DNA from: a virus
Taxonomy: Duplodnaviria; Caudoviricetes
Length of the DNA stretch: 60,563 nucleotides
IMG/VR virus record: IMGVR_UViG_3300032227_001790
Span: 1-60,563 of that record
Direction: 5' to 3' (one strand)
Positions 18,805-23,798 of this stretch are shown here, piece by piece. Each line of letters opens with the position of its first letter. Within the stretch, counting starts at the first letter, position 1. The translations under genes were made by a program, and so were the position numbers. The notes beneath the pieces were generated by a model. The model was not told the origin of the DNA. It saw only the letters and a list, made by a program, of their open reading frames with translations, and did not search any database.

Positions 18805-19221
18805 CTATCTTGAGAAGTAATTTTTTAACTTTTCGACTCTTTTTTCATCGAATTTAGTTTTATGTCTGTCTTCGTAGTTTTTTTGTAACAATTCGACAGC
18901 ATCATCTTTTCCTTTACTTCTTAGTAAAATATATGCCCCTAAATCTGCATCTATTTCATCATCATCGTTCCTATCTTTATCGTGTCCTAAAATTATATGG
19001 GCTACTTCATGAGCCTCAATAAATTTTAAAAAAGATGGGTCATAGTTCTGAAGTAAAATTTCTCCATTTATGACAATTAGATTTTGATTTGGAACCATAA
19101 ATCCATATCCGTATTTATTGAACAAAGGTAGTAATTCTTTATACTTCTTGTCTTCAGAGAAGACAACGGCAATGTTTACTCCCTTTAAAAATTCACTTTC
19201 GTAGGTTAGTCTTGTTGACAT
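18805..19221 (-). CDS. HExxH metallopeptidase-like protein
   Basis: AHEVAH...EIDAD. Confidence 0.7.
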   Translation of the reverse strand: MSTRLTYESEFLKGVNIAVVFSEDKKYKELLPLFNKYGYGFMVPNQNLIVINGEILLQNYDPSFLKFIEAHEVAHIILGHDKDRNDDDEIDADLGAYILLRSKGKDDAVELLQKNYEDRHKTKFDEKRVEKLKNYFSR

Positions 19222-19226
19222 TTAAA

Positions 19227-20036
19227 TTATTTAAGTAGGTTATAATATTCTTTAAAGTGTTTTTTCCTGTCTTCTAATCCTATAGTTCCACCATTTACAC
19301 ATTTAGTAACAGATGTTACTGCAGCATCAGATTCGTCTACACACTTACTTAAACAATTTTTACTGAAAAACCAAGCGGCAGATAAGAGTGGGTATTTTGT
19401 TGATACAATGTCTGGATTAGAAACAATATCTTCATTTATCGCTTTACCAAAAGCCGTATAGTTGTCTTTACCAGTCAATTGAATAAATCCGCGGCCACGA
19501 AATTTGAAACCTTCTTTGGTCTCTTCTACACCATTACCCATTCTTCCTCCATAAACTCTTGATGCAATCTTTTCGGGTTGTCTTGCATAAGATTCTGAAA
19601 GAGTTCCTGGAAAATACTTAGGAAATATTTTTTTGAGACCGTCAGAGGAGTAATTTAGATTTTCATTAACAACTTTAAATCCTCCTGATTCATGTCCACA
19701 TTGTGCTAAGAAGTGAGCTAACTTAAGTGGAGTATCAATTTTGAATTTGGCTGCAGTGTCAGGTATCTGTGCAATTACAGCATCAGGAATATGACCCTTC
19801 AGTTTATCAAGTTTAAGACCACCAACTTGAGGGACGACTTGAGGAGTAACTGACTCATTCATAATCTTACTCCAAGTGTTATCACCTACAATACCATCAG
19901 GCGTTAACGAATTTTTAGTTTGAAAATTTTTGACAGATTCTTCAGTTTTTTTTCCGAAGTCACCATCACCAGATAATCCAAGTTTCAATTGTAATTTTTT
20001 TACATCTTCTCCTTTGGACCCTAATTTTAATAGCAT
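19227..20036 (-). CDS. endolysin: peptidoglycan-binding domain + GH19 catalytic domain
   Basis: LKLGSKGEDVKKLQ...DGIVG; HFLAQCGHES, RGRGFIQLTG, VNGGTIGLEDR. Confidence 0.93.
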   Translation of the reverse strand: MLLKLGSKGEDVKKLQLKLGLSGDGDFGKKTEESVKNFQTKNSLTPDGIVGDNTWSKIMNESVTPQVVPQVGGLKLDKLKGHIPDAVIAQIPDTAAKFKIDTPLKLAHFLAQCGHESGGFKVVNENLNYSSDGLKKIFPKYFPGTLSESYARQPEKIASRVYGGRMGNGVEETKEGFKFRGRGFIQLTGKDNYTAFGKAINEDIVSNPDIVSTKYPLLSAAWFFSKNCLSKCVDESDAAVTSVTKCVNGGTIGLEDRKKHFKEYYNLLK

Positions 20037-20094
20037 AAAAAAATATTTATAAGGTTTATTACCCTATAAATATTTTTATTTTGATAACTTTACT

Positions 20095-20370
20095 TTAGTG
20101 AGATAAACTATCTACGGAAACTGATAAAGTATCCACAACATTTACTAAAGTGTCTACAGGTAAAATAACACTGTCCTTGGTAGTTGATACAAAAATACCA
20201 TCAACCTGATTAATAATCAAATGGAAATCAACCATATCCTCAGTAATATAACCGTACTTAACACCTAACAATGAAAGTCCGATTATGACCAAAGACACAA
20301 CAATTACCATAGGTTTTTTACCTTTGAGAATAGAAATGAGAGGCAGAAATTTTTCTTGAAGTTTTTTCAT
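20095..20370 (-). CDS. small membrane protein (holin/antiholin candidate)
   Basis: One strong TM; C-terminal DSV/DTL/DTL/DSL repeats; directly upstream of endolysin. Confidence 0.6.
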   Translation of the reverse strand: MKKLQEKFLPLISILKGKKPMVIVVSLVIIGLSLLGVKYGYITEDMVDFHLIINQVDGIFVSTTKDSVILPVDTLVNVVDTLSVSVDSLSH

Positions 20371-20387
20371 AGTTTTTTAATTTAATT

Positions 20388-21403: not shown

Positions 21404-21410
21404 AATGTTT

Positions 21411-22835
21411 TTATTTTATGTTTATTTTAAATTGTGTACCAATTGTATCAAGCTTATTACATTCAATATTGAATCCATGTTCTTCAAGTATTGCAATACA
21501 AATATTAAGGCCTAATCCTGTTCCAGTTTCTTTCTGATTTTCTTTTCTTGTATATGGTTGTGATAGTATTATAAAATCTTCTGAACTCAGTCCTCTTCCG
21601 TTATCTTCTATATATATGGTATCATTAACTCTATATAATTTTACGAACTTTGTTGAACTATCATTATATTTTAACCCATTACGAATAAGATTGTCCAATG
21701 ATGTACAGAATAAAGCCTCATTAACTTCGGCAATCCCCATATCTTCTATAAGAACTTGTGATTTATATGCGGTTGATGCTAAGTAAGATGATATTATTTC
21801 TGATAAATTGCAACTTTTTTTAGACAATATTGCATTTGGTCTAACTAGATTTGTAAATTCAAAAACGCCTTTGTAAACTTTCTGAGCGTGCGATAATCCC
21901 TCTTTAATCATTTTAAGTGGGGCATCTATCTTTAGTTCTTTAACTTGTTCATCTGTCAATCTTCTTTCCAAAGAAGTAATACCTCTCGGAATATATGTAT
22001 TAATACCACTATGCATATCGTGTCTTAATATCTTCGAAGCATGCTCCAAGTAGGTATTTTTCTTTTCTATTTCTTTCTGTTGCTGAATAGTTTCGGTTAC
22101 ATCTACAGCAATTTTCATTATTTTGTATGGATTACCTGATAAATCTAAGATTGGATTGTACGTTGCTTGTAACCATATTGGACTTCCATCACTTTTGACT
22201 CTTTCAAATTCACCAGTAACGGATTCTCCATTTTGTAACTTTTTCCAAAACTCACCATACGCAATAGAATGTTCATCCTTTTCAGTTACAAAAACTCTAT
22301 GGTGTTTACCTACAATATCCTTTAGTTCAAACCCCATTGTCTTTAAGAATATATCGTTTGCAATTAAAATCTTACCATCAAGTGTAAACTCAATCACCGC
22401 ATTTGAACGGTTGATAGCATTAAGACGATTTTGTGTTTCTTGTTCCTGTTTTTTAAAAAGTGTAACATCAAGAGCATATTTTACAATCTTAATAATTTTT
22501 CCATCCTCATCAAAAATAGGATTATATGTTGCTTGTAGATAAATAATTGAACCTTCCCTAGATATTCTCTCAAATTCACCAGAAACGAATTGACCACTCT
22601 TTAATGTGTCCCAAAACTTTTTATATTCTTTCGATTCCGCATATTCTGGTTTTACAAAAATACGATGGTGTTTACCAACTATTTTAGAAAGTTCATTGGG
22701 AAGATAACCAATTGCAGAAAGAAATACATCGTTTGCTTTAATGATTATACCATCCAAGTCAAATTCAATAACAGCATTAGAACGATTAATTGATTCTAAT
22801 CTACTAACTAGTTCTTCTTTTGATAGATTCTTCAC
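21411..22835 (-). CDS. soluble PAS-PAS sensor histidine kinase
   Basis: Two PAS/PAC repeats (LQATYNPI); H-box RHDM, N-box NLIRNGLKY, DNGRG, GTGLGL. Confidence 0.95.
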   Translation of the reverse strand: MKNLSKEELVSRLESINRSNAVIEFDLDGIIIKANDVFLSAIGYLPNELSKIVGKHHRIFVKPEYAESKEYKKFWDTLKSGQFVSGEFERISREGSIIYLQATYNPIFDEDGKIIKIVKYALDVTLFKKQEQETQNRLNAINRSNAVIEFTLDGKILIANDIFLKTMGFELKDIVGKHHRVFVTEKDEHSIAYGEFWKKLQNGESVTGEFERVKSDGSPIWLQATYNPILDLSGNPYKIMKIAVDVTETIQQQKEIEKKNTYLEHASKILRHDMHSGINTYIPRGITSLERRLTDEQVKELKIDAPLKMIKEGLSHAQKVYKGVFEFTNLVRPNAILSKKSCNLSEIISSYLASTAYKSQVLIEDMGIAEVNEALFCTSLDNLIRNGLKYNDSSTKFVKLYRVNDTIYIEDNGRGLSSEDFIILSQPYTRKENQKETGTGLGLNICIAILEEHGFNIECNKLDTIGTQFKINIK

Positions 22836-23287
22836 AGTTGATTTAAAGTTTTTTGATTGATGTTAAGAGTATCTATTTTTTTGGAGGAAACTTCTGTTGA
22901 ATCTAAATTTTCAAGCACAGATGAATCCGAATTTACAGATGTAACGGTTTTCTTTTTTCCCCAAAAGTTTTTTTGTGTTTCAATGAAGACAGTATCAATT
23001 CTATATATGATTTTCTCACTTACAACTTTCAATTTATTTTCTAAAGTCAATTTTTCTGTTTTAAATTTTTCAACTTCTTTGTTTAGATACTTAATTTCTG
23101 TCACAATTTTTATTACTTTATCTTTTGTAATTGAGTCTGTCTTTTTTCCTAATGTATCTACTGTCAATAAGTGTTTTTCACTATTCAAAATCAAAGTATC
23201 AAGAACTTGTTGAGTATTTTCATTTTCTATCTTTTGAGAACATGAAACTAAAAGAGAAAATAATATTAGTGTTTGGAGTTTTTTCAT
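22832..23287 (-). CDS. lipoprotein (o-spanin-like candidate)
   Basis: Lipobox LLVSC; stop overlaps kinase start. Confidence 0.65.
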   Translation of the reverse strand: MKKLQTLILFSLLVSCSQKIENENTQQVLDTLILNSEKHLLTVDTLGKKTDSITKDKVIKIVTEIKYLNKEVEKFKTEKLTLENKLKVVSEKIIYRIDTVFIETQKNFWGKKKTVTSVNSDSSVLENLDSTEVSSKKIDTLNINQKTLNQL

Positions 23288-23311
23288 GAGAATACGTTTA
23301 GAGAACTTATT

Positions 23312-23614
23312 TTAGTTGATTTTACCTAATTCTTGCAATACGGTAATTTTAGAAACTGCTGCGGATAGTGCACTATCAGACCTTCTTAATTGTTGGGTTA
23401 AAGCATCTATTTTAGTTTCCAAAACTTCGATTTTTTTCCCTTGGTTCTGAATTTGGTTATTGTAATTAATTTTACCATCGACGTAGAGATATCCAATTGC
23501 AATTATCACAATAAATAATAGACCTTTAACTGGTTCTTTTGCAAATTCTTTAAAGGAAATTGGTGGTTTGATTGCTCCTGTAACTGCGTCTACAGTTTTT
23601 TTTGATGTTGCCAT
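23312..23614 (-). CDS. single-TM coiled-coil protein (i-spanin-like candidate)
   Basis: TM then heptad repeats; precedes lipoprotein; TATTTAT upstream (23692-23698). Confidence 0.6.
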   Translation of the reverse strand: MATSKKTVDAVTGAIKPPISFKEFAKEPVKGLLFIVIIAIGYLYVDGKINYNNQIQNQGKKIEVLETKIDALTQQLRRSDSALSAAVSKITVLQELGKIN

Positions 23615-23798
23615 TTCTTTAATATTTAATTTAATACCAATAAAGCAAACCAAAAGTTTAGAAAAAACTTTTAGATAGTATCTTGGTTACTATAAATATA
23701 TAAATTATTGGTATCTTTGTTAAGAAAATATAAAATTTACTTATATCGATTATGTAGAATCAACTAAGATTTTATTAAACGTAAATTATGTTCTGAAA

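Follow-up and report, generated by a model that had tools for sequence, protein, structure and literature searches.

The 60,563-nucleotide stretch of phage DNA analysed here (the window; IMG/VR record IMGVR_UViG_3300032227_001790, Duplodnaviria, Caudoviricetes) contains a lysis cassette in which a PAS-PAS histidine kinase, a receiver-only response regulator and a protein with a two-helix membrane hairpin, g5, are encoded side by side. Comparison with other viral loci supports the view that these three proteins form one conserved phage module, and we think it fairly probable that this module is a signalling device by which the phage controls the membrane step of host lysis. The source record, 60,563 bp long with a GC content of about 31%, has a CheckV completeness of about 20% and is thus a fragment of a phage genome of about 300 kb, which belongs to an uncultured freshwater jumbo phage.

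Eight tightly packed genes lie on the minus strand between a TATTTAT motif (23692-23698(-)) and a terminator-like hairpin (18730-18707(-)), in the order g1, g2, PAS-PAS kinase, receiver, g5, g6, endolysin (PG_binding_1 + GH19) and g8. All eight open reading frames (ORFs) were found on this strand at the coordinates given below, and the overlaps that an earlier note on this DNA had described are real when read from the DNA: the stop of g2, a predicted lipoprotein gene, and the start of the kinase share GTGA, and the stop of the receiver and the start of g5 share TAATG, which is a 1-nucleotide (nt) overlap. The kinase stop is separated from the receiver ATG by 7 nt. Run X3, from a separate study, yielded contigs that differ by 0-3 letters from parts of g5, the kinase and the kinase/lipoprotein junction; they are short and none covers the whole cassette, and these matches indicate that the three stretches are not peculiar to one assembly. 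The features of the module are as follows (TM, transmembrane; aa, amino acids; AF2, AlphaFold2).

21411 to 22835, minus strand: PAS-PAS histidine kinase, 474 aa, GTG start, soluble
22467 to 22775, minus strand: PAS domain 1 of the kinase, residues ~21-123, from Pfam and the AF2 model
22101 to 22400, minus strand: PAS domain 2 of the kinase, residues ~146-245; nearest solved relatives are flavin-type PAS domains
21846 to 22097, minus strand: DHp-like two-helix region of the kinase, residues 247-330, with invariant H265, H272 and H275
21417 to 21818, minus strand: CA (GHKL) ATP-binding domain of the kinase, Pfam HATPase_c
20972 to 21403, minus strand: receiver-only response regulator, 143 aa, without output domain
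20388 to 20972, minus strand: g5, 194 aa; small N-domain with invariant LEGN, long coiled-coil helix running into TM1, loop, TM2
20415 to 20627, minus strand: membrane hairpin module of g5, residues ~116-186, common to PAS/GAF fusion proteins

Kinase, receiver and hairpin protein as one module

A scan with the kinase alignment gave 234 confirmed viral relatives among at least 595 pattern matches, and the best 80 loci (numbered with the prefix L) were examined. They lie on contigs of up to 430 kb, and their kinases are 51-71% identical to that of the window. The kinase is present in 80/80 loci, the receiver in 79/80 and g5 in 78/80, so that the full trio is found in 78/80. The receiver and g5 genes overlap by 4 nt in 38/78 and by 1 nt in 36/78 of these loci (74/78 together), and their translational coupling is therefore kept almost everywhere. 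Between kinase and receiver there is a gap of at most 40 nt, or an overlap, in 69/78 loci; in the other nine a second kinase paralogue lies between them. The survey of kinase-receiver-TM synteny with lysis genes that the earlier note had called for did not refute its proposal. Receiver-g5 fusions were looked for among longer proteins and none was found: one candidate (P0361, 458 aa), seen a single time, is unrelated in its N-terminal part, and another (P0355, the g5 N-terminal part joined to FecCD) looks chimeric.

The sensor end of the kinase varies among the loci (2TM-PAS-PAS, GAF-PAS-PAS, 2TM-GAF-PAS-PAS), and the soluble form of the window is one variant. The description of the kinase as soluble is therefore true of the window but not of the family, many members of which carry an N-terminal 2-TM and/or GAF extension. 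The second kinase, found in 9/80 loci, consists of a signal/TM segment, an extracytoplasmic region of about 200 aa without a Pfam family, a TM segment, a DHp region and HATPase_c (examples: L003 11955-13475, L011 7768-9129, L013 11976-13379 and L081 6287-7510). In phages that have it, two inputs may feed one receiver.

A search of 185,579 prokaryote species genomes (one genome per species) matched 36 loci. In 32 of them the match covers the PAS half only, with 42-54% identity and in many phyla, relatives of this kind being named as chemoreceptors; three are ordinary kinases with 24-25% identity. The full-length kinase family was found only in L081 (50% identity), a phage-like contig of 13.5 kb binned to a metagenome-assembled genome (MAG), which also carries the second kinase, the receiver and g5. 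Two contigs are binned to Verrucomicrobia and Ignavibacteria MAGs, and we do not trust this as evidence of a host. These matches speak against a recent transfer from a host, which the earlier note, for an intact one, had listed among the findings that would refute its proposal. Among 50,697 deposited phage records, megablast of the region gave no match, tblastn of g5 and of the receiver gave none, and tblastn of the kinase and of a fusion protein described below gave matches at the level of PAS domains only, the best being MT836939, which is unannotated.

The kinase matches Pfam PAS_3 with 101.7 bits in two stretches and HATPase_c with 46.3 bits (cut-off 26.4, E 6.5e-12). Its CA domain, compared by sequence with the PDB, matches the kinases QseC, CpxA and HK853. 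An alignment of 14 relatives shows DNLIRNGLKYND, EDNGRG and GTGLGLN (N, G1, F and G2 boxes) to be invariant, as expected of a GHKL domain, and the residues of the H, N, G1 and G2 boxes do not change across it. The AF2 model, with a predicted local distance difference test score (pLDDT) of 77, consists of two PAS domains, two long helices (247-281 and 304-330) and a GHKL domain. The statement that all catalytic boxes are present is thus based on the invariant motifs and on the model, and not on a HisKA family match. The putative phospho-acceptor is H272, in LRHDMHSG (codon 22020-22022). The best Foldseek matches of the model are NifL (1.8e-24), WalK and LOV-kinases, together with the redox sensor domain of MmoS, and PAS domain 2 matches by sequence 3ewk (E 3.3e-11), 4gcz, phototropin LOV and Aer (8dik). 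This likeness to flavin PAS sensors suggests that the sensed cue may be redox- or energy-like. A LOV photoreceptor was considered and rejected, the aligned motif GKHH(R/S)IF having no adduct cysteine when compared by eye with the LOV motif.

The receiver-only regulator was borne out by Pfam (Response_reg, 37.9 bits, cut-off 30.2) and by the residues of the phosphorylation pocket, since D9, D10, D61, S92-94 and K114 are invariant in 35 receiver sequences. D61 (codon 21221-21223) is the probable phospho-Asp. The receiver is the most conserved part of the module (84% mean pairwise identity) and a divergent member of its kind, its best natural match in the PDB being 3ilh (E 7.8e-6).

The AF2 model of g5 (pLDDT 81.8) shows the N-domain and two helices joined by a loop of four residues; the first helix (37-150) runs from the cytoplasm into the membrane, and the second comprises residues 155-188. 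Mean pairwise identity within g5 is 73% in the hairpin, 53% in the N-domain and 51% in the coiled coil. No meaningful Pfam match was obtained even at E≤5, also with N-domain and hairpin searched separately, and no PHROG lysis family was matched. Foldseek of the model, which is essentially one long helix and a hairpin, against the PDB gave nothing at E≤0.001, and hhalign gave a probability of 1.0% with a Phage_holin_4_1-type family and of 2.7% with a family of 2-TM proteins (F2). In the ESM Atlas, the clusters to which g5 belongs are 100% viral and have no Pfam family, and a structure search returned only these viral clusters. g5 is a 2-TM protein encoded near an endolysin, a feature that is not specific to holins; the earlier description of it as holin-like applies to topology only, as homology to a holin family is lacking and Pfam holins co-occur with the hairpin.

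The complex of receiver and g5 that the earlier note had suggested modelling was predicted with g5 residues 1-120. The score was 0.43, above the best of three controls (0.00), with 100% contact agreement between runs and a partner pLDDT of at least 86. The mark for a complex was reached by 58/80 solved complexes and 2/110 mismatched pairs, and at scores of 0.60 or below by only seven of those 80 solved complexes and by both passing mismatches; these counts hold only roughly here, as the prediction used our own alignments. The result stands above its controls, but its support for the contact is weak.

Sensor-hairpin fusions and the linkage to lysis genes

Evidence on the role of g5 comes from phages in which its hairpin is part of a sensor protein. 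In L082, an ORF of 372 aa consists of PAS-PAS, a connecting coiled coil and the g5 hairpin, with 70% identity to residues 81-194 of g5 and without kinase core, receiver or g5 N-domain. The hairpin was matched by 2964/3398 candidates at E≤1e-3; the best 120 listed of these 2964 are all PAS or PAS-PAS proteins of ~250 or 371 aa, none with HATPase_c. A search of 1.84 billion representatives with a profile of the hairpin retrieved 120 clusters, among them PAS, PAS-PAS, GAF (P0248) and LEGN-N-domain forms. No receiver homologue was found in 81 fusion loci and no second g5-like gene in trio loci, which indicates that trio and fusion exclude each other.

In L189, to which the window is most closely related, the order is g1-fusion-g2-g6-lysin. 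Its proteins are 91% (g1), 91% (g6), 95% (lysin), 80% (d2), 80% (d4) and 69% (g2) identical to those of the window. Since the flanks are nearly identical and the fusion lies in the place of the trio, the fusion stands in for the trio in the same cassette. Because the same hairpin is fused directly to sensors, and because a fusion replaces the trio in L189, g5 is supported as the output of the sensor. The interpretation in the earlier note is partly supported, namely in its wiring and in the linkage to lysis genes; an effect on lysis, the redox or energy signal and the holin and spanin labels stand as proposals.

The first 25 residues of the window kinase resemble the N-terminus of the fusions. 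In addition, the tail and TM2 of the window g5 (20388-20720(-)) are nearer to the fusion type L117-L196 than most trio g5 proteins are, with 68-73% identity to the fusion type and 51-71% to other trio g5 proteins over tail and hairpin. This suggests that trio and fusion may have exchanged parts by intragenic recombination.

For the analysis of neighbouring genes, trio loci were dereplicated at 90% g5 identity (36 lineages) and fusion loci at 95% identity (45 lineages). In 24/36 lineages the trio has a GH19 lysin at most 1.5 kb away, and in 14/36 at most 100 nt away; this lysin is either downstream or upstream, and in the latter case on the same strand or divergent. When four lysin families are considered, a lysin lies within 1.5 kb in 25/36 trio lineages, farther away in three and nowhere in eight, four of which have flanks of 2.7 kb or less. 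Beside the fusions, a lysin is found at most three genes away in 34/45 lineages, and in 32/39 of those with full flanks. The background of lysin proximity, 259/1024 genes inside the same lysis-centred loci, is biased upward. The Pfam families of the neighbours are GH19, Phage_lysozyme (147 bits), Peptidase_M15_3 (76 bits) and PG_binding_1, with Phage_holin_4_1 at 32 and 35 bits (cut-off 22.2). Recognised holins occur within three genes in 11/45 fusion lineages, and F2, an 87-aa 2-TM protein, occurs within three genes of the sensor-hairpin gene in 31/81 loci. Pairs of a TM/coiled-coil protein and a lipoprotein also occur among the neighbours. As the proximity to lysins outlasts both rearrangement and the replacement of one lysin by a non-homologous one, it argues for a functional tie to lysis.

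Two fusion loci have further neighbours of note. In L082, a Phage_lysozyme-type lysin (7085-7762 (+)) lies directly 5' of the fusion and ends in a hydrophobic helix at its C-terminus, which is unusual and would anchor it in the membrane. In L165, a 158-aa protein (7271-7747, family F21) is unimolecular-spanin-like, having a lipobox at the N-terminus and a TM helix at the C-terminus, and an 85-aa TM/coiled-coil protein (7744-8001, family F11) follows 3' of it; the two genes immediately precede the fusion in ~8-9 loci.

Lysis-type and other genes of the window

The genes that surround the trio in the window, and the signals that delimit the unit, are the following.

23692 to 23698, minus strand: TATTTAT promoter-like motif upstream of g1, the first gene of the run
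23312 to 23614, minus strand: g1, ~100 aa, N-terminal TM helix and C-terminal coiled coil, i-spanin-like
22832 to 23287, minus strand: g2, predicted lipoprotein of 151 aa, signal peptide up to the lipobox LVSC, coiled-coil region, o-spanin-like
20095 to 20370, minus strand: g6, candidate holin of 91 aa with a single TM helix, immediately 5' of the endolysin
19227 to 20036, minus strand: endolysin, PG_binding_1 + GH19, without signal or TM segment
18805 to 19221, minus strand: g8, 138-aa HExxH protein 3' of the lysin
18707 to 18730, minus strand: terminator-like hairpin, 9 pairs, 6 of them G-C, followed by a T run; closes the eight-gene unit

The endolysin was identified as such by Pfam (Glyco_hydro_19, 36.5 bits, cut-off 25.5) and PHROGs (phrog_181 endolysin, E 3e-65), in agreement with the GH19 assignment made earlier, and it has a cell-wall binding domain (PG_binding_1, 44.8 bits). 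The adjacent g1 and g2 have the features of spanins (TM helix, coiled coil, lipobox LVSC) without a family match, and on these features they are a candidate two-component spanin. The start given previously for g1 (TTG 23653, 113 aa) is unlikely; ATG 23614 is probable and gives 100 aa, which is the length of its homologue family F67 (L189 member 91% identical). Pfam finds in g1 only a weak coiled-coil match, DUF7201. For g2 no match was found in Pfam or PHROG searches; its homologue family is F68 (L189 member 69% identical). Typical o-spanins are far shorter than the 151 aa of g2. In L138 and L189 the fusion gene separates g1 from g2.

No family match in Pfam or PHROG was found for g6 either, and its homologue family is F41 (L189 member 91% identical). 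Searches of g1, g2 and g6 against Pfam at E≤5 gave nothing meaningful, and BLASTP for homologues of g1, g2, g6 and g8 in the 80 trio loci found none. A further candidate, a displaced holin, is an 86-aa 2-TM protein (13867-14127 (+)) that is 76% identical to family F2 and lies ~5 kb from the cassette on the opposite strand. g8 gave a weak match to Peptidase_M48 (Pfam E 7.9e-4) and to the metallo-protease family phrog_87 (E 3e-5), and by eye we take it to be like ImmA/IrrE-type peptidases; its family (F57) comes after the lysin in L128, L131, L134, L147 and L149.

The TATTTAT motif noted earlier is indeed present upstream of the run, and a second copy lies just 5' of the lysin (20066-20072(-)). 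As 54 copies occur in the window (37.6 ± 5.7 in shuffles), the motif by itself is weak evidence for a promoter.

Elsewhere in the window, the gene at 31231-32529 (-) encodes a thymidylate synthase of 432 aa with ~281 profile positions of phrog_160 aligned, which leaves an insertion of ~150 aa. A 629-aa protein (52542-54431 (-)), which may be a wall hydrolase of the virion, has a metallo-endopeptidase domain (phrog_7767, E 3.4e-41). The gene at 44182-45855 (-) encodes a Nol-like carbamoyltransferase (phrog_1601, E 8.4e-109).

How the module may act on lysis, and what it would mean

The mechanism that we propose runs from a cytoplasmic cue to the membrane. The tandem-PAS kinase, whose PAS domains are flavin-type by likeness, would sense a cue inside the cell. 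It would autophosphorylate, probably at H272, and pass the phosphate to D61 of the receiver, as the conserved residues suggest. The phosphorylated receiver would then bind the N-domain of g5, a step suggested by the coupling of the two genes, by their co-occurrence and by the weak complex prediction, and the coiled coil of g5 would pass the change on to the near-invariant membrane hairpin. The hairpin as output is the best-supported step of the chain.

For the action of the hairpin we tentatively put forward a gated trigger as the likeliest of the mechanisms considered, though with confidence well below even: the switched hairpin would oligomerise and leak ions, the membrane potential would drop and the resident set of holin, endolysin and spanin would fire. 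Holins fire on collapse of the membrane potential. Because the hairpin is 73% identical among the phages while the holin and lysin families vary, we favour a trigger directed at the membrane, or at some conserved target, over a protein that binds one particular holin. As recognised holins co-occur with the hairpin, g5 is probably not the sole hole-former. Rather doubtful is the broader form of this idea, in which sensor-gated membrane hairpins are a large family with thousands of members, driven by fused PAS or GAF domains or by a phage-encoded kinase-receiver relay, and a universal lysis trigger that dissipates the potential and so fires any holin.

Several observations weigh against this interpretation of the module. 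In the kinase, no Pfam HisKA model matches the DHp/H-box region even at E≤5, and the AF2 model falls below a pLDDT of 50 at residues 274-301 of the DHp region. The score of the receiver/g5 complex lies in a range where predictions fail more often than they succeed, except for pairings that were probable from the outset, and homology of g5 to holins was found by none of Pfam, PHROG, hhalign and Foldseek. The idea of a trigger is based on conservation and on the spacing of small residues in TM2 as judged by eye. Because the lysin lacks an export signal, a large-hole holin would still be needed, and none was confidently identified in the window. A recognised lysin is missing nearby in 8/36 trio and 11/45 fusion lineages, and loci without one include some with long flanks (L013, L044, L076, L011, L117, L148 and L179). 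Finally, all loci come from related uncultured phages, and their synteny is thus partly inherited.

The hairpin could also be a brake, g5 and the fusions acting like antiholins that keep a holin, or the membrane itself, from lysing the cell for as long as the signal stays unchanged. This would be a lysis inhibition informed from the cytoplasm and, in some phages, from the periplasm, and we regard it as unlikely. Delay of lysis by antiholins has precedents in T4, where the antiholin RI acts on the holin T and causes a signal-dependent delay (PMC11413866), and in the lysis inhibition of the Vibrio phage ICP1 by TeaA/ArrA (PMC7182436). Phage_holin_4_1 and other small TM proteins adjoin the gene, which points to a separate holin in many phages, and the second kinase of 9/80 trio loci, with its extracytoplasmic region of ~200 aa, would suit periplasmic sensing, for example of superinfection. 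However, a protein that binds a holin should co-vary with it, and the hairpin is almost invariant beside unrelated candidate holins (F2, Phage_holin_4_1 types, F30, g6). Moreover, in some loci, such as L019, the cassette lacks any further small TM gene.

It is a little less probable still that the hairpin protein serves as the holin, with the sensor as its gate and the other small TM proteins as accessories. Its topology (N-terminus in, two TM helices, short C-terminal tail) would fit, as would its distance of at most 100 nt from the endolysin in 14/36 trio lineages, the L019-like loci with no other TM gene in the cassette, and the window lysin, which without a secretion signal requires a holin. 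Against it stand the lack of homology to holin families, a conservation unusually high for a holin and the recognised holins within three genes in 11/45 fusion lineages. Holins of jumbo phages are often encoded elsewhere in the genome, as is established for T4, which also speaks against this identification.

That the module has nothing to do with lysis and serves a membrane-directed host takeover or superinfection exclusion, or that its receiver acts on host targets as a decoy or phosphate sink, its location being due to descent only, we consider improbable. The receiver is the most conserved part (84%), as if it contacted a conserved host protein, and both the eight trio lineages without a nearby lysin and the relatedness of the phages would agree with such a role. 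On the other hand, the proximity to lysins persists through three rearrangements and the replacement of the endolysin by a non-homologous one, receiver and g5 are coupled in 74/78 loci, and the fusions drop the receiver yet remain in lysis cassettes. Last, a recently captured host two-component system (a moron) with no phage-specific role is very improbable: the PAS-PAS half shares 42-54% identity with PAS regions of 32 bacterial loci from many phyla, such relatives being named chemoreceptors, but only 1/36 genome matches has a family-level kinase half, and that on a phage-like trio contig, the g5 clusters are 100% viral, and the family is found on at least 234 viral contigs with diversified sensor architectures.

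Full-text literature searches found no report of PAS domains or of two-component systems that control lysis by phages. A review of jumbo phages (PMC7824862) describes, in the passages retrieved by a term search, a different, NAD-linked receiver, and the term 'holin' does not occur in it; another paper links LytST to lrgAB (PMC3507848). The signalling device that we favour resembles T4 (T, RI, RIII) and ICP1 in that a sensed condition sets the moment of lysis through a post-translational membrane switch. It differs from them in that their small periplasmic or membrane antiholin binds the holin directly, without PAS, GAF, kinase or receiver, whereas the window system would use a cytoplasmic sensor with a phosphorelay or a direct fusion. 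We know of no likeness of the module to T, RI or RIII in sequence or fold.

In Gram-positive bacteria the two-component system LytSR governs the holin-like LrgAB/CidAB; that system is bacterial and transcriptional, as LytR binds DNA, whereas the window receiver has no output domain and would act by contact with g5. CheY-type single-domain receivers act by binding a target (CheA-CheY-FliM), and likewise the phospho-form of the window receiver is expected to bind a target protein; unlike that system, the window kinase is of the DHp type and not a CheA, and the target would be a membrane hairpin protein and not a motor switch. With NifL, MmoS, Aer and the LOV kinases the window kinase shares tandem PAS domains followed by DHp/GHKL, according to fold and sequence matches; it differs in its output, a phage membrane protein, and its flavin binding is putative. 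Aer also pairs a PAS domain with a membrane hairpin. The pinholin S21 68 is a class II holin with two TM helices and a small-residue spacing in a TM helix. g5 is like class II holins and pinholins in its two TM helices, its place in a lysis cassette and its small-residue TM spacing, but it has a cytoplasmic part of 115-150 residues, a far higher conservation than is usual for holins and no detected homology to the holin families compared with it. To our knowledge, no holin with a sensor-receiving cytoplasmic part of 115-150 residues has been described.

The family is abundant in freshwater metagenomes and was not found in the 50,697 deposited phage records, which may be why no description of it was found. 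The timing of lysis sets phage fitness and burst size, and explanations of it have so far relied on holin clocks and a small number of antiholins (T4, ICP1, lambda, P1). If our reading is true, the module would represent a new principle, a post-translational and signal-dependent control of lysis by standard signalling domains, and the invariant hairpin would be an undescribed membrane effector domain that could find use elsewhere as a switch for lysis. The variety of sensors (PAS, PAS-PAS, GAF, 2TM-anchored, second kinase with a periplasmic region) suggests that different phages listen to different cues. In the broader form of the idea, which we called rather doubtful, the hairpin could couple lysis in freshwater phages to the redox or energy state of the host, possibly following day and night, and in some of them to a periplasmic cue through the second kinase. 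A sensory pathway that ends in a membrane effector would give a directly testable handle on when environmental phages kill.

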